Of a stretch of DNA of 64,000 nucleotides, positions 15,001-24,000 are shown in pieces. The DNA comes from an uncultured Gammaproteobacteria bacterium (GTDB lineage: Bacteria > Pseudomonadota > Gammaproteobacteria > JABCZS01): NCBI GenBank assembly GCA_964443025.1, contig CAYUEL010000001.1:6155-70154 (forward strand). Direction: 5' to 3'. Made by a program: the position numbers. Each line of letters opens with the position of its first letter. Position 1 is the first letter of the stretch.

Positions 15001-18000
15001 TTTAATCACTTTTCTATTTTTCAATACTAGGTTTTCAAACTGCAATCCCATTAATATATTCCAGTTGGGTAATTGCGATAAAGAAACATCCGTGAAATTA
15101 TCTAATGCTATTCTATCTTTATTAGGAAAAATAAATTTTAAATAAAATCTTAAATAATTATCACTTAAACGAAATACACTCAACCTTGAAGACTTACCGG
15201 ATTTAATCAACCAGGTATAATCCCTCGAAACAAAGCTTGATTCCACTAAACTATCAAGATAATCGCTGATAACACCACTTTTCTTATAATTTAATTTCTG
15301 ACAAATGCTATTAAAGTCACAGGAGCCTTCAGATAAAATCTCAACAATTTTTCTATAAACCTCACCCCTTCTTTGAAATAAGTCATGAAAAATCCTTTCA
15401 AATTCGTGAAACAATAATCCCTCTTTAATGAAACATAATTTTTTGATATTATCATCTGCATTAAACTTAGATTGAATTTGTTCTAAATACCAAGGAATTC
15501 CACCTAGCACTGATAATAATTTAAATTTTTCATAATCTGACCCCCTAAAACCTTGCTTCAATAACATGTCATTGCAATCCAGCAAAGGCAATTCCTCTAA
15601 TGTTAAGTAAAGAGAAATTCTGCCAAAAAAAGCTGTGCTACTGAGGATATTCTTTTCAATCCAAGTTGAAACCGAACCACACAATACCAATATTAACTCC
15701 GGATTCTTTTTAAATTCCATATCCCAAGCATTTTTTAATTTCCCTAAAAAGGTGGGGTCTTTAGATCCCATCCAAGATATTTCATCCAACAAAATAACCA
15801 CTCGACCTTGTTGCGTATGTCGAGCCAGTAAAGAAAATAATTCCGCCCAATCCTGGACACGCAGACCTGGAAGACCTAATTGTTTTGCTAGTTGTTGGGC
15901 AAATGCATCTTGTTGAGATTGCCGAGTGCTTCCCTTCGCAGGAGCAAGACCAGAAAATTGAAAAAAGCTGTAATCTTTGCCAAATTCCTCAATTAAACGG
16001 CTTTTGCCAATACGACGACGGCCCCGCACCACCACTAGGCTTGCACTTTGCTTATCAAATAAGCCTTTGAGTTTGGCTAACTCAGACTCTCTGCCTATAA
16101 AAGGGGCATTAGCAGGTGACATTTGATTACTCCTATTATGCACATAATAGGAAATTCTACATTATGTGCATAATATAGTCAATGGCGATATTATGCACAT
16201 AATTCAAAATTCTATATTATGTGCATAATAACTTCCGTTTGAATAACCCAATGATATTTAAGGGATAATAAGTAGTTATTTATACCCAACTGTAGTTTGA
16301 TTAGATTGAATAGGTGCTAGAGTTTCTTTATCTGAATAATCTTATCTCTAGTCTTTAGCCCGCGAATGATGATGAAAGCAGAGCAGGGGATACCGAGCTC
16401 TTTGGATAGCAACCTAATAACTTCTTTGTTAGCTTTACCATCTTCAGGAGCCACGGTTACATAAACACGAATACGTTTCTTGCCATTTTCAAGGTGCTCA
16501 ATTTTAATTCGATTAGCTGCTGCCTTTGGTGTTACACGTACATGTAAAATGTCACCAAAATCATCAAGGCTGGTAAAGAGGTCTAGTATCATCGTATCAA
16601 CAGTTTATCTTATATTGCATCGCATTTTAAGAGCATGAAGATTAAAAGCAGTCTATTCAAATATTTTAAACGCTATTACGCAAGCATGAGCCAGCGAACA
16701 TTGGTGATGAGTTAGATCTCATCTGATCGCTCCGCTCACTCACGTTCGCGGTTCCCGTAAAGGCTTGTCGTAATCTCATACGTGAGGCGCGAACGTTAGT
16801 GAGCGGGTGTGGAAAATTATAAATTTATACCTTGTTTTATGCATCAGGATTTTCTCCTCCAAGATAAGGTACATTTTCTTTTTCAGCATAATACTTATAT
16901 ATTTCAGCGAATTCCCATTCAGGTTCATAGACTTCTAGAATATCATCCATGACCGCATGTACTCTGGGGTCGTGGGTTTTGTTACACTTTGCAATTGCCG
17001 CCTCTTTTATCTCTTCCCACTGCAATTCACGCATACAAAATACAATGATTTCAAAAGGGCCTATTGTGCGGTCATAAACTAATTCAACAAAGCAGTCTAC
17101 TAAAATATCTCTATGTTTAAGATTTTTTTTTGTAAATTCAAGAATCGCTAATAAATCAGGCTCAAGATCGGGAGCGCCTCGAGTCATTGTTTCCCAGGTC
17201 TTATCTGCTTTTTTACAAAGTTCCTTAAACTCATTTACAATTGCTTCTCTTTGGTTCATTTTGGTCTCCATTTTCCACCTCGAGGTAATGCGGGTTCAGC
17301 TACCCAATGTTTTTCAATGTACTTTCCTTCTACATCAAAACCTATTTCCCTAAAGGCCTTTTCGGCTGCATACCGTGCACGTGGCCCGTGAGGTAAGTAA
17401 TGACCTGACGAGTTATCAATGTACCTTATTCTACCATGCACCAAATGCACTTCTCCCCCAGCTTGAACAGGCTCACCGTTGGCTAAATCAATATGCCCTC
17501 CCCCAGGCGTATCACGATTTTTCCCAACCACCAAACGTCCATCTTTTTTTACAACGTAGTTAAGCTTGCCAGTATAAGTTTGAAGAGCACGAACATTAAA
17601 TATATCTACCCTATCCAATTTATCCTGAGGAAATTTATTTTCAAATAACTGGGGTGCCTCTCGAGAGGGTGAAGGGGATCGGCTTGGACTTCGACCACCC
17701 CTACCTGAACCACCTGACGCTCCATGCGACGATCGTGCTTGTGGATTATTGTAAGCCTGTTGTGAGCGCAAGTAAAATGAAACACTGCGTCGGCTTGAAT
17801 CTGCATTAGCTTGTGGCAAAGACGGTAAGTACGTTCGGGTGACTGCATGGTGAGTGCCAGGATCAAAGGAAGCGTTGATAACTGATGTCACTTTCGGCGT
17901 CAAACCAGACTCAAAAATGACCTTGGGTTGAATATGAACACCACCATAAATCAAACGCATCGCTTCTTTATTGAAACTAGCGGGCACCCATAAGCATTGC

Positions 18001-21000: not shown

Positions 21001-24000
21001 TCGGATAAATTCTCTGAAATATCATACAACTGAGATGAATAGGCATTAAAATATTCAACTGCATGACAAGTTGGAATAGGTTTGTTACGGTAATCTTCTT
21101 GTAATAATTGATATCGACGACGAAACCGTTCGGAAAAACGTTCACTTGTGCTAGTAATACGTGCTAGTGTTTGTTGTTCACTTGGCGTGGTTTTAGTTGT
21201 GGTAGCGGAATGAGCAAGCAAACGGTCGTATTCTTCTCGCGCTTGCGCTGTGCCTAATGCTTCATAAGCATTGTTTAATTGCGCCATGTCGCTAACATTA
21301 CCTGATCTGTCTGGATGCAATAAAATGGCCTTTTTTCGATAGGCTTTTTTAATCTCATTTTGTGAAACACTTTTATCCAAACCTAATACAGCGTAATAAT
21401 CAACTCCCTTTTCAATGATCATTCCCAACCTCCTAACATTTAAAAATTAGAACACACTTCATTTTTTACAACAACCCCCCATTTGGGTAGTATTTTATTG
21501 TGCAAAAATGTGATTTAATCTACGGGGTGTATAACAGGCACCTATTCAACCACGGAGGTTTATTATGTTTCAAGAAATAGAAGGGCTTCTTAATGAAGCT
21601 GAATACGAAGCAACATTAGAAAACACCGATGCTGCTGATGCAGCCTATAAAAATGCCGTTAAACTGCTTGGAGAGAAAAAAACAGCTAACGGTATTAAAG
21701 AAATTTCAGCCAAAGTTTATCATGCTTATGGCTCTTTTTTAGTAGCGCAAGACGATCCAAGTAAACAAGGACAGGGGCAGAGCTATTTAACGATTGCAAA
21801 GAAATTTTCCAGTCAGCCAGTTGCTTCGCCATCTTCGTCTTCGTCCTCGTCATCATCATCTTCGTCGTCACCTTCTTCATTGTCGTCGTCTTCTTCGTCT
21901 TCAACACGTGCACCGGTGCGCAGCATGAGTGATAATCATGTCAACAAAGTACCTAGTAATTCCGCTGTACGAGCCATTTACGAAAAAGCAACGAAAGACG
22001 ATGATACGGATGCACAATTTTCTTTAGCTGAACATTACAGCCGTGGCGAAGGTGTTGAACAGGATTGGGAAGAAGCGTTGTATTGGTACCAACGCGCTGC
22101 GAGTCAAGACCATGTAGAAGCACATATCCAAATAGCTTTAATGTATTTTCGAGGTATCGGGGTACCTAAAAGTATTGAGAAAGCCGGTGAATGGTTTCGT
22201 AAAGTGGCCGGTGAACAAGGGGCATTACAACAATATTGTTTAGCGATGTGTTGCTCCGAAGGTTGGGGTGTTGCAAAAGATGAGAAGAAAGCATTTACAT
22301 TAGCTGAACAATCGGCATCACAACCAGGCGGCTGTGTGTATGCAGAATTTCAATTGGGACAAATGTATAATACGAAAGGGGCTAACAAAAATGTTAATCA
22401 AGCAAAAGCATGGTTTAAAAAAGCCGCTGATAAAGGTTATGCCCCTGCACAAAATAATTTAGGTAATCTTTATGGGCAATTATTTCAACAAGGAAACAGT
22501 GAAATCCCTCAAAACTACATTGAAGCCCGCAAATACTGGGAAAAAGCAGCTAACCAAAAACATGCGATGGGCGAATACAGTATGGGTCTGATGTTCTCTG
22601 AAGGAGCAGGCGTCACCATAGATTACAAGCAAGCTGTAGTATGGCACGAAAAGGCGGCGAAACAAGGCTATGCCCCCGCGCAAACACAGTTAGGGTGGAT
22701 CTTTCTGTGGGGAGCAGGCGGTATGCCAATAGAGAAAAACAAAGCACGTTCTTGGCTTAAAAAAGCAGCAGATCAAGATGACAGTATGGCACAGTGTAAC
22801 TTAGGTCGTCTTTGCGAAGACGAGCAAGATTACCATGCTGCAGCGGTATTATACAAAAAAGCAGCTGACCGAGATTATGAGTGGGCAATGTTCTATTTGG
22901 GCCTTCTCTATAAAAACGGATTTGGCGTTTCCAAAAATTACAACACCGCTCATGACTGGTTTAAAAAGGCTGCAGATTTAGGGCATGCCGAAGCGCAATA
23001 TTGGTTAGGTTGGTTGTACGAATATGGTCACGGCGTTACCCTAGACTACCCCACCGCATCTAAATATTACAAACTGTCAGCAGATCAAGGCGATGCAAGA
23101 GGGCAAGCTGGGCTTGGCATGTTATATGAGGAAGGTAAAGGTGTATCAAAAGATTTAACTACAGCCTTTGACTATTACAAAAAAGCAGCCGGCCAAGGTA
23201 ATAAGATGGGAAAATATTACCTAGCCAGCTTGTACAAAGAAGGCAAGGGTACCCGTAAAAATCTAAATGAGGCCTTTAAACTTTTTCTAGAGTGCGCGAA
23301 GGAAGACGATGAAGAGGCCATGATAACCGTTGGCTATATGTATGAAAAAGGCGATGGTATTGGACGAGACTATGCACAAGCCCGCCACTGGTACGAAAAA
23401 GCTGCCGCCAAGGATAATGCGCAAGCGATGCACAACATAGGTTGCCTCTATAAAGATGGAAATGGCGTCGATCAAAATTGGGATACCGCTAAGGAATGGT
23501 GGCAACAAGCTGCTAATCTTGGTCACAGCGATGCAAGCCGTGCCCTTCAAATTTTTGCACATCGCCACGGTTCTAATTCTTCATGCAGGATTTCGTAGTG
23601 AGCTATTTATAGATTATAAACAACCCCTCGAAAGAGGGGTTGTGGGTTTATTTACCCAACCCAAATTATGAGTTACAAAATTAGCGCTAACTCAGCAAAA
23701 AGGATTTTCAATATGGATACCTTGCATCAGCTTTGATGGCCGCATTAAGCGCTTATGCCCTACAACCCTTATCACTGTTTCATTTTTGCTTTATCATCAA
23801 GAGAACTTCCACCACCACCTCCACCTTTATTTTTGTCTCTTTCTGCCTTGGCTGCTTTACCAGCTGTACTACCCAGTTCATCGGATTCACCCGCTTTTTG
23901 AGCGCCTATTTCAGCACGGTACATATCGCCTTTCTGAGCGGCACCTGCATAACCCGCGCCCACAGCACCGGCACCTGTTTCGGCACCTGCTTTCGCGCTG

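Follow-up and report, generated by a model that had tools for sequence, protein, structure and literature searches.

Genes and domains at the locus

The window, i.e., the whole 64,000-nt stretch of DNA that was analysed, contains two overlapping minus-strand ORFs between dotL and dotA. The longer one (17256..21428; 1390 codons counted from a TTG at 21428) is the putative gene of a J-domain polymorphic toxin. The shorter one (16837..17271) encodes a protein of 144 aa (pI 4.72), the candidate cognate immunity protein, whose homologs lie downstream of toxin-domain homologs; its ATG is preceded by a ribosome-binding site (GAGGTGG). The two ORFs share 16 nt (17256-17271). Upstream of the pair are encoded DotG, DotH, DotI, DotB, DotC, DotD, IcmS, DotM and DotL, and downstream DotA, IcmV, an IcmX-like protein and IcmW, meaning that the pair is encoded alongside a complete Dot/Icm system (DotB/C/D/G/H/I/L/M, IcmS, DotA, IcmV, IcmW). 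The pair is carried by an insert poorer in GC than the dot genes around it, and next to it lies PDC-S27 (E 6e-87), a candidate defence gene.

Translation of the toxin gene probably starts at an ATG (21422) that lies 6 nt downstream of an AGGAGG and yields a 1388-aa product matching NCBI protein P0001 at 100%. Divergent from the toxin gene, on the plus strand, lies a gene (21565..23598) for a Sel1-repeat protein of 677 aa with 12 repeats (Pfam Sel1, E 1.6e-100) and without a signal peptide. In 18 of the 24 family loci that could be evaluated, the toxin gene is preceded, on the same strand, by a Sel1-like gene that ends 3-80 nt before it. The similarity of the window Sel1 protein to these conserved partners is only at the level of the repeats, and hence its membership in their family is tentative; possibly, it is a partner or adaptor of the toxin.

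The toxin protein begins with a J domain (aa 10-68; 21225..21401, minus strand, as for all the segments given below), recognized by Pfam DnaJ with 59.2 bits against a cut-off of 27.8 (E 4.4e-16) and containing an HPD motif (aa 38-40; 21309-21317). The PDB matches to this segment are J-domain structures, with E-values down to 2.5e-10. All the sequences of a 17-sequence alignment (A2) have the H and D of the motif, and HPD falls within the first 80 aa in 71/95 full-length family representatives. In about 10 family members the motif is replaced by HSD, HTD, HQD or HED, so stimulation of Hsp70 may not be essential everywhere. The protein thus resembles Hsp40 proteins in having a canonical, HPD-containing J domain above the Pfam threshold but, unlike DnaJ, it lacks the Gly/Phe, zinc-finger and client-binding domains. 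Secreted effectors with a J domain are known, e.g., HopI1 of the Pseudomonas syringae T3SS, in which the J domain is C-terminal and no toxin/immunity module occurs. The window protein differs from Hsp40 proteins, HopI1 included, by the fusion of the J domain to a 1,300-aa toxin-delivery protein.

The J domain is followed by a conserved scaffold (aa 69-1144; 17997..21224) with invariant columns in alignment A2. According to the scaffold homology search, its most widely kept core is aa 455-735 (19224-20066), to which an HRFWIE motif (19389-19406) belongs. Searches of Pfam, PADLOC and PDB sequences gave no match beyond the J domain, and the AF2 model of the scaffold was poor (pLDDT 62). The scaffold ends in a pre-toxin boundary motif, CLWVPASFNKEAMRLIYGGV (aa 1145-1164; 17937..17996), in which A2 shows no variation at W, P, A, Y, G, G and V. 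Then comes a variable linker (17661..17936), including a low-complexity Gly/Ser/Arg stretch, SGGSGRGGRSPSRSPSPS (aa 1238-1255; 17664-17717). Neither a signal peptide nor a transmembrane segment was found in the protein, nor any recognizable N-terminal trafficking domain, as Pfam returned DnaJ only.

Much of this agrees with the first-pass annotation, which had described a 1390-aa ORF overlapping by 16 nt a 144-aa ORF (both found at the coordinates it gave), an N-terminal DnaJ J domain with HPD, a Gly/Ser/Arg linker and an acidic partner; its placement of the pair in a T4BSS locus is supported by the flanking dot/icm genes.

The C-terminal tip and its partner

The protein terminates in a predicted toxin domain (aa 1257-1390; 17259..17660), for which homologs were found (P0011-P0025) with E-values down to 1e-37. 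The cassette starts at an LFENKFP junction (17628-17648) and includes the strings GGGHIDL (17484-17504) and IDNSSGHY (17397-17420). The invariant residues are His1312 and the Asp/Asn/Ser/Gly/His/Tyr at 1338-1344. The tip is basic (pI 9.49), the partner acidic, and the tip gave no Pfam match. In the AF2 model it forms a compact domain (pLDDT 91.7), just as anticipated for a discrete C-terminal module behind the linker, even though its size is ~134 aa and not the 170 first supposed; the His/Gly-rich strings that had drawn attention to this region are indeed part of it. Comparison with homologs shows that the protein consists of a delivery part (J domain plus scaffold up to C-x-WVPA...YGGV), a disordered Gly/Ser/Arg/Pro linker and an exchangeable basic tip of ~134 aa.

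The same tip also terminates proteins of the CdiA/TpsA (L065), FHA-repeat (L074) and SpvB/TcdB (L057, L072) types, as well as a further, unrelated protein of 1426 aa (L053). The L065 toxin, for instance, has a TPS domain (1.5e-49) and DUF637. One toxin domain is therefore carried by unrelated delivery scaffolds, as is characteristic of polymorphic toxins, and its recurrence as an independent cassette supports the proposal that the low-complexity linker is followed by a separable toxin module. Distant copies of the toxin core were also seen in Lys-rich, AT-rich proteins.

Homologs of the 144-aa protein are encoded directly downstream of toxin-domain homologs (L001, L005/L006, L052, L053); the ORF after P0013, for example, gives a product 40% identical to it (E 3e-26). 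Among metagenome loci whose toxin domain closely resembles that of the window protein (44-57% identity), an immunity homolog was adjacent in 37/37, typically with a gene overlap of 3-33 nt. The partner family always accompanies this toxin domain, and since homologs are adjacent wherever a close copy of the domain occurs, the 144-aa protein is taken to be the specific partner of the tip. A toxin/immunity-like pairing had been suspected from the outset, and the two genes very probably form such a pair.

An alternative already raised in the first-pass annotation, which is speculative and which we regard as unlikely, is that the pair encodes a host-directed Dot/Icm effector, whose J domain hijacks amoebal Hsc70 while the C-terminal enzyme hits a host target, together with a meta-effector, i.e., a 144-aa protein that is translocated along with the effector and, beyond any protection of the bacterium, modulates it inside the host. 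The Glu-rich tail of the partner had been likened to a Dot/Icm E-block, but this idea did not survive the comparison with homologs. The acidic tail, ...EVYE-EW--(D/E)-Y-YY, is conserved in immunity homologs that go with other toxin scaffolds, outside type IV contexts; because of this conservation it is no evidence for an E-block, being a family trait and not a Dot/Icm signal. Neither EExxE nor FxxxLxxxK occurs at the C-terminus of the partner, in which an EEIKE is only internal (aa 86). What the window partner does have is a 13-residue C-terminal extension, KENVPYLGGENPDA, absent from its homologs, and this feature would suit the host-effector alternative, as would the distant toxin-core copies in Lys-rich, AT-rich proteins, the position of the pair in the Dot/Icm cluster and the precedent of J-domain effectors such as HopI1. 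The combination of Sel1/TPR repeats and a J domain, moreover, is reminiscent of eukaryotic Hsp70 co-chaperones. What speaks against a host effector is that the partner family also accompanies this toxin domain where no T4SS is involved, on CdiA/TpsA, FHA-repeat and SpvB/TcdB toxins, as an immunity protein would.

A scaffold family with exchangeable tips

When the scaffold (aa 80-1200) was used as the query, we retrieved 474 cluster representatives, of which 143 had E<=1e-30; an ORF of 1390 codons with so many homologs is far beyond chance. The conserved part spans ~1,100-1,150 aa and ends in C-x-WVPA...YGGV; the WVPA...YGGV motif was found in 84/157 representatives, always preceding a variable tip, and many members have Gly/Ser/Pro-rich linkers before their tips. 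The 81 tips of usable length fell into 33 BLAST clusters, of which 20 are singletons, and include AHH (3e-15), Ntox17 (1e-36) and GIY-YIG (1e-5) domains. A common N-terminal and central region followed by unrelated C-terminal toxin domains is another hallmark of polymorphic toxins, and the window protein is almost certainly a member of this tip-swapping family. The first-pass annotation was right that the protein is real, but what had appeared to be a single odd protein belongs to a large family with swappable tips. A literature search found no published description of this J-domain scaffold family, which apparently has not been described so far.

Most family loci have a small ORF on the same strand, whose start lies between -28 and +60 nt relative to the stop codon of the toxin gene. 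In the 20 loci compared, the tip clusters coincided with the downstream-ORF clusters (Fisher p = 2e-28): 21 locus pairs had both clusters in common and none had only one, as expected for immunity genes that lie immediately downstream of, and co-vary with, the toxin domain. Three loci (L011, L040, L042) have tandem downstream ORFs of similar size, which look like immunity-gene arrays.

The family is nearly confined to Legionellales. Of the 42 genome loci, all 23 whose titles are resolved to order level or below belong to this order, not counting two MAGs assigned to Francisellaceae and one short contig assigned to Bacteroidia. Legionellales are intracellular bacteria, and such a distribution would fit the host-effector explanation, whereas the exact co-variation of tip and partner, together with the apparent tandem immunity genes, is typical of inter-bacterial conflict.

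The same data bear on a further, very improbable alternative, namely that the pair is a non-secreted toxin-antitoxin, addiction or abortive-infection module, in which stress or phage would be sensed via DnaK, the toxin released in the producer itself, and the small protein would be an antitoxin. Defence systems also swap effector domains, the searches for secretion signals found none, and the pair lies in a low-GC insert beside the PDC-S27 candidate. PADLOC, however, recognized neither toxin nor partner; the same tip/immunity cassettes occur on secreted CdiA and Tc-type toxins; and a range restricted to one order and matching the Dot/Icm lineage would be surprising for a general defence system. 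The seemingly tandem orphan immunity genes, for their part, point to toxins arriving from outside.

The organization of toxin and immunity genes is like that of CdiA-CT/CdiI and Rhs/Tc-type systems, as described in the part covered here of the survey by Zhang et al. (2012; PMC3482391): a conserved delivery region, an exchangeable C-terminal toxin and an immunity gene directly downstream. In the 300,000 characters of that survey that were covered (PMC3482391), DnaJ is not mentioned. With the CdiA/TpsA, FHA-repeat and SpvB/TcdB proteins, the likeness extends to the same toxin/immunity cassette at the C-terminal end, and LFENKFP opens the window cassette as VENN does in CdiA. Unlike CdiA/Rhs systems, on the other hand, the window protein lacks a TPS domain, FHA repeats, RHS repeats, PAAR, LXG and a signal peptide. 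It is not a CdiA protein, as the TPS secretion domain, the FHA repeats and the DUF637/VENN pre-toxin region are all absent and only the tip is common to both. Its delivery part is instead a J domain plus a scaffold of ~1,100 aa with the C-x-WVPA...YGGV boundary, from a family almost restricted to Legionellales and usually with a Sel1-like gene upstream.

Proposed export, target and activity of the toxin

Taken together, 17256-21428 and 16837-17271 probably encode a polymorphic toxin together with the cognate immunity protein, which would act as follows. In the producer, the immunity protein would bind and neutralize the toxin domain. The toxin, having no signal peptide or transmembrane segment, would be handed to the Dot/Icm type IVB system, while its J domain may recruit Hsp70 (either the producer's DnaK or the recipient's own Hsp70), so that the toxin is kept unfolded or refolded, with the Sel1-repeat neighbour as a putative adaptor or chaperone. 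In a recipient that lacks the immunity protein, the tip would work as an enzyme.

Only the genomic surroundings and the phyletic range point to an export route, and we consider the case for Dot/Icm export of the toxin to be about evenly balanced. At the toxin C-terminus we found no E-block/EExxE or FxxxLxxxK motif of the kind that marks Dot/Icm substrates. The variable C-terminus is an awkward site for the usual C-terminal Dot/Icm signal. Only 2 of ~43 family loci, the window and L042 (which adjoins dotI, dotH and dotG), are within 10 kb of dot/icm genes. One could accordingly imagine, though it seems improbable, that toxin and immunity functions are as proposed but that exit occurs by a conjugative T4ASS, an Lvh-type system, vesicles or lysis, the dot/icm position being an accident of island insertion. 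Besides the missing signal motifs, the many loci away from dot/icm genes and the lower GC of the insert would be compatible with such an accident, but two independent loci next to dot/icm genes and a phyletic range matching Dot/Icm argue against it. The lack of a signal peptide and the variability of the C-terminus make Sec, T1SS and T2SS unlikely routes. As for the target, a competing bacterium has roughly even chances, whereas a eukaryotic host is rather doubtful.

Delivery of toxins to bacteria by type IV systems has precedents. The kib T4BSS cluster of Pseudomonas putida IsoF encodes its own effector-immunity pair and performs contact-dependent killing of bacteria (PMC9519443). The window pair is like the kib pair, by description, in that the proteins are predicted to be cytosolic and carry no recognized Dot/Icm C-terminal signal; in the same paper (PMC9519443), unlike here, neither a J domain nor Sel1 nor a tip-swapping family is mentioned. 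A second difference is that the kib immunity gene is upstream of the effector gene. In X-Tfe toxins a conserved C-terminal XVIPCD recognition domain follows an N-terminal toxic part, and the X-Tfi immunity proteins are mostly periplasmic lipoproteins. The window protein, unlike X-Tfe, has its conserved part at the N-terminus and its toxin at the C-terminus. Shared with X-Tfe/X-Tfi of the bacteria-killing T4ASS of Xanthomonas and Stenotrophomonas (PMC6759196, PMC6536674) are the adjacency of immunity genes and, if our assignment is correct, type IV delivery.

The AF2 model of the tip has the secondary-structure order beta-beta-alpha-beta-beta-alpha-beta-beta, and was compared with PHPT1, the 14-kDa phosphohistidine phosphatase (PDB 2nmm, 2ai6), with which the sequence identity is 18%. 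The general base of PHPT1 is His53 (PMC11277029), and in our reading of the model helix 1 of the tip would begin with its invariant His, as helix 1 of PHPT1 begins with His53. Membership of the tip in the PHPT1/Janus sequence family was considered and rejected: there was no Pfam match, hhalign against the PHPT1 profile gave a probability of 0.1, hmmsearch in the PDB profile search gave no match to PHPT1, and Foldseek of the tip model did not report it. The likeliest substrate of the tip would contain phosphate, either RNA or DNA or, as the PHPT1-like fold of the model might indicate, a phospho-protein.

Speculatively, then, the Dot/Icm system of Legionellales may also deliver toxins with J domain, Sel1 partner and swappable tip against bacteria, the tip representing a new, PHPT1-like enzymatic class. 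If so, Dot/Icm would serve more than the manipulation of eukaryotic hosts, and the J domain would put Hsp70/DnaK to use in export or in refolding inside the recipient. The tip might then be directed at phosphohistidine signalling or transport (two-component systems, PTS) instead of nucleic acids.

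A J-Domain Protein Gene and Its Overlapping Partner in a Dot/Icm Locus

The window contains a Dot/Icm type IVB secretion locus, with DotG/IcmE, DotH, DotI, DotB, DotC, DotD, IcmS, DotM and DotL on one side of an insert and DotA, IcmV, an IcmX/TraW-like protein and IcmW on the other. The insert, between dotL and dotA, has a GC content of 0.36–0.41 versus 0.42–0.46 in the flanks (GC3 about 0.29–0.32 versus 0.38–0.42) and holds a PDC-S27-matching ATPase, a YggU protein, the putative immunity and toxin genes, and a 677-aa Sel1-repeat protein.

The toxin gene (17256–21428, minus strand) is an ORF of 1390 codons with a TTG start that shares 16 nt with the immunity gene (16837–17271, minus strand; 144 codons). 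An ATG at 21422, two codons inside the toxin ORF, is probably the real start, given the AGGAGG 6 nt upstream and the agreement with the NCBI version of the protein (P0001, 1388 aa), which is 100% identical to the product from this ATG. The ATG of the 144-aa gene is preceded by GAGGTGG. Scans for promoters and terminators gave background level only.

The overlapping ORFs, the J domain, the linker and the short strings quoted in the first-pass annotation were all confirmed in the sequence, by ORF listing, by a Pfam DnaJ match (aa 10–68, 59.2 bits against a cut-off of 27.8, with HPD at aa 38–40), and by the low-complexity stretch SGGSGRGGRSPSRSPSPS at aa 1238–1255. DnaJ was the sole Pfam domain of the toxin protein; the rest of the chain had no match in Pfam, NCBIfam, PADLOC or PDB sequences, and the whole protein matched J domains only among PDB sequences. 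Searches of Pfam, NCBIfam and PADLOC with the C-terminal domain (the tip, aa 1257–1390), the immunity protein and the conserved body (the scaffold) likewise returned DnaJ only; neither the toxin nor the immunity family carries an annotation. The partner is indeed acidic, as first described (pI 4.72); the C-terminal 134 aa of the toxin protein are basic (pI 9.49).

Some neighboring genes, all on the minus strand, deserve mention. The insert's ATPase (14662–16143) combines an HTH with a match to the PADLOC candidate defence family PDC-S27 (E 6e-87), shares the low-GC insert with the toxin gene, and has an ATPase_2/AAA paralog at 40387–41844. A 393-aa protein adjoining icmW (29994–31175), with weak Recombinase/HTH_62 matches, may be a remnant of the region's mobility. 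Between icmV and the IcmX-like gene, 26702–28150 encodes a 482-aa protein whose sole match was a sub-threshold one to a BCCT transporter (24.7 bits; cut-off 27). Finally, a 4398-aa ORF in the GC-richer part (50783–63979, GC 0.46–0.49), reaching nearly to the window's end, had no Pfam match at E ≤ 1e-3 and could encode a giant effector or surface protein.

A Scaffold Family with Variable Tips and Co-Varying Partners

A word-indexed search retrieved 10 relatives only, with a common body and differing C-termini, two of which were AHH nucleases. An exhaustive HMMER search with aa 80–1200 yielded 474 cluster representatives, of which 143 had E ≤ 1e-30; their lengths were mostly 1,300–1,600 aa. Cultivable carriers include Legionella worsleiensis, L. 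shakespearei and L. lytica. HPD lies inside the first 80 residues in 71 of 95 full-length representatives, and is replaced by HSD, HTD, HQD or HED in about ten more (such variants occur in P0002, P0003, P0032, P0047, P0070, P0074, P0149, P0157, P0161 and P0168). Since the proline of HPD is normally required for Hsp70 stimulation, some lineages may have relaxed or altered the function of the J domain.

The scaffold ends in a motif, W-[VIL]-P-[AS]...[YF]-G-G-[VI], found in 84 representatives near residue 1,150–1,300; in a 17-sequence alignment its W, P, A, Y, G, G and V were invariant, as were scaffold motifs such as HRFWIE. Past this WVPA...YGGV motif the sequences diverge. BLAST grouped the 81 usable-length tips into 33 clusters, of which 20 were singletons; many tips are preceded by a Gly/Ser/Pro-rich linker. 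Recognizable tips included AHH (3e-15), Ntox17 (1e-36) and GIY-YIG (1e-5), each a toxin domain characteristic of polymorphic toxin systems (PMC3482391). Some regions beyond the motif are very long (1866 aa in a 3042-aa protein at 9995–19123 of locus L040; 720–730 aa in P0071 and P0077), pointing to tips made of several domains or several toxins.

For the genome loci retrieved by the scaffold alignment, the start of a small ORF on the same strand usually lies −28 to +60 nt from the toxin stop codon. When tips and first downstream ORFs of 20 loci were clustered separately, the two partitions were identical: 21 locus pairs shared both clusters, none shared only one and 169 shared neither (Fisher p = 2e-28). 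In three loci (L011, L040 and L042), the toxin gene is followed by a tandem of two or three small ORFs of similar size, which look like immunity paralogs, as in loci of inter-bacterial conflict, and in L007 an Imm11-family gene lies downstream.

A second neighbor recurs upstream. Of 24 evaluable loci, 18 have a Sel1/TPR-like gene that ends 3–80 nt before the toxin gene on its strand, and two more have one downstream; the upstream partners are interrelated (E 1e-37 to 1e-44) and have a common C-terminal PLERLG motif. The 677-aa Sel1 protein of the window is adjacent and divergently transcribed, with repeat-level similarity only to those partners, so its membership of the toxin system is tentative. 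We can speculate that the Sel1 protein is an adaptor or chaperone, or that it cooperates with the J domain on Hsp70.

The Window's Own Cassette and Its Possible Activity

Searches with the last 134 aa of the toxin found homologs down to E 1e-37, in which G-G-H-I-D-L, A-G-E and I-D-N-S-S-G-H-Y-x-P-x-G are fully or almost fully invariant, and the 144-aa protein had three homologs in the protein index. Wherever the context was readable, the two families were adjacent. In L001, an orphan cassette array (a cassette being a tip with its immunity gene), the downstream ORF is 40% identical to the 144-aa protein (E 3e-26); L005 and L006 have the pairing on a different scaffold; and both the orphan array L052 and the unrelated 1426-aa carrier in L053 have immunity homologs about 39% identical. 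Scanning metagenomes returned 63 loci. The toxin domain of 37 was 44–57% identical over its full length, and each of these 37 had an immunity homolog immediately downstream, in most cases with an overlap of 3–33 nt. Metagenome carriers of the domain were CdiA/TpsA proteins (TPS 1.5e-49, haemagglutinin repeats, DUF637), FHA-repeat proteins and SpvB/TcdB Tc-type proteins.

The window's cassette begins at a short conserved junction, LFENKFP, and such start junctions are usual for recombining toxin cassettes. Taken together, the adjacency, the carriers and the junction indicate that the C-terminus is a discrete, mobile domain and not part of a continuous repeat. The separable module proposed at first pass thus holds, with the continuous-repeat alternative answered by the recurrence of the same domain and immunity gene on unrelated carriers. 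The proposal that the two genes form a toxin/immunity pair also stands, the partner family being adjacent in every readable context, and on this comparative basis we regard it as very probable.

The AlphaFold2 model of the tip was confident, compact and alpha/beta (pLDDT 91.7, pTM 0.85). In our reading, its order of secondary structures would be that of the 14-kDa phosphohistidine phosphatase PHPT1, whose general base is His53 (PMC11277029). His53 starts the first helix of PHPT1, as the invariant first His would in the tip, and the invariant DNSSGHY loop would fall at PHPT1's loop before helix 2. This mapping found no support from Foldseek, hmmsearch or hhalign; Foldseek of the tip structure against the PDB gave no match, nor did the A1 (tip) and A5 (immunity protein) profiles. 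Hits of a wider tip profile (A4) to designed 'Bagel' beta-propellers were an artefact, with about 6 bits per repeat summed over 8 repeats. A metal-independent nuclease or a different phospho-hydrolase would be consistent with the basic tip, its acidic immunity protein and the pair of conserved histidines.

A wider superfamily of 240–500-aa proteins without Pfam annotation keeps H...G...IDNSSGHYxP, the invariance of IDNSSGHY being partly built in, as it was one scan pattern. Nine metagenome contigs (L098–L102, L108, L109, L111, L112) encode a distant core, HHS..CGQPVICAG...IDNSSGHYSPP, in Lys-rich proteins of 240–330 aa, apparently from AT-rich organisms. We found no immunity homolog next to these copies, and consequently the toxin core may have a second, non-polymorphic use.

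Delivery Route, Target, and Meaning

Labels of Legionella, Tatlockia, Legionellaceae, Legionellales, Coxiellaceae or Coxiella were attached to 23 of 42 genome loci; the others were mostly unclassified Gammaproteobacteria or Pseudomonadota MAGs, the exceptions being two Francisellaceae-labelled MAGs and one 2.5-kb contig labelled Bacteroidia. The toxin locus in the window and that in L042 adjoin dot/icm genes; in the other loci none lay within 10 kb. No protein of the set had a signal peptide or hydrophobic segment, and this, together with the variable C-terminus, makes export through Sec, a T2SS or a T1SS improbable. The obvious candidate is Dot/Icm, and we infer, at roughly even chances, that it exports the toxin. 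A scan for E-block (EExxE) or FxxxLxxxK motifs gave nothing useful, the toxin having neither. The resemblance of the partner's acidic tail to an E-block, suggested in the first-pass annotation, was not borne out, the tail being conserved in the inspected immunity homologs beside unrelated non-J scaffolds and in orphan cassettes. The Hsp70 hijacking also raised there is speculative.

As for the target, the strict tip–immunity co-variation, the extra immunity genes and the cassettes held in common with CdiA lead us to favor a role of the toxin family in inter-bacterial conflict. There is a precedent in Pseudomonas putida IsoF, whose T4BSS cluster encodes its own cytosolic effector–immunity pair and kills bacteria (PMC9519443). 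It is possible that the toxin acts on an amoebal host, with immunity serving only for self-protection; inter-bacterial conflict is nevertheless the reading we favor.

With variable tips, co-varying immunity genes and cassettes found on other toxins, the system classifies, on comparative grounds, as a polymorphic toxin system. It is not CdiA, an Rhs protein or an X-Tfe, and no recognizable trafficking domain was found in the toxin protein. Full-text literature searches yielded no description of a J-domain polymorphic toxin of Legionella or Legionellales, and the portions consulted of a 2012 survey of polymorphic toxins (PMC3482391) do not mention DnaJ. The principle is familiar; what appears to be new is the delivery scaffold, its lineage restriction and the probable secretion route.

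The routes on record for polymorphic toxins are type V, VI and VII secretion, Tc/Rhs and their like, and a J-domain-scaffold family nearly confined to Dot/Icm-bearing Legionellales would add a new delivery architecture. Dot/Icm systems have been studied almost solely as host-manipulation devices; the family would suggest that they also carry toxins needing immunity proteins, which may target rival bacteria sharing amoebae or biofilms. It further gives a bacterial J domain a defined function beyond general proteostasis, and adds two protein families, the toxin domain and its immunity protein, that are widespread on CdiA and Tc-type toxins.
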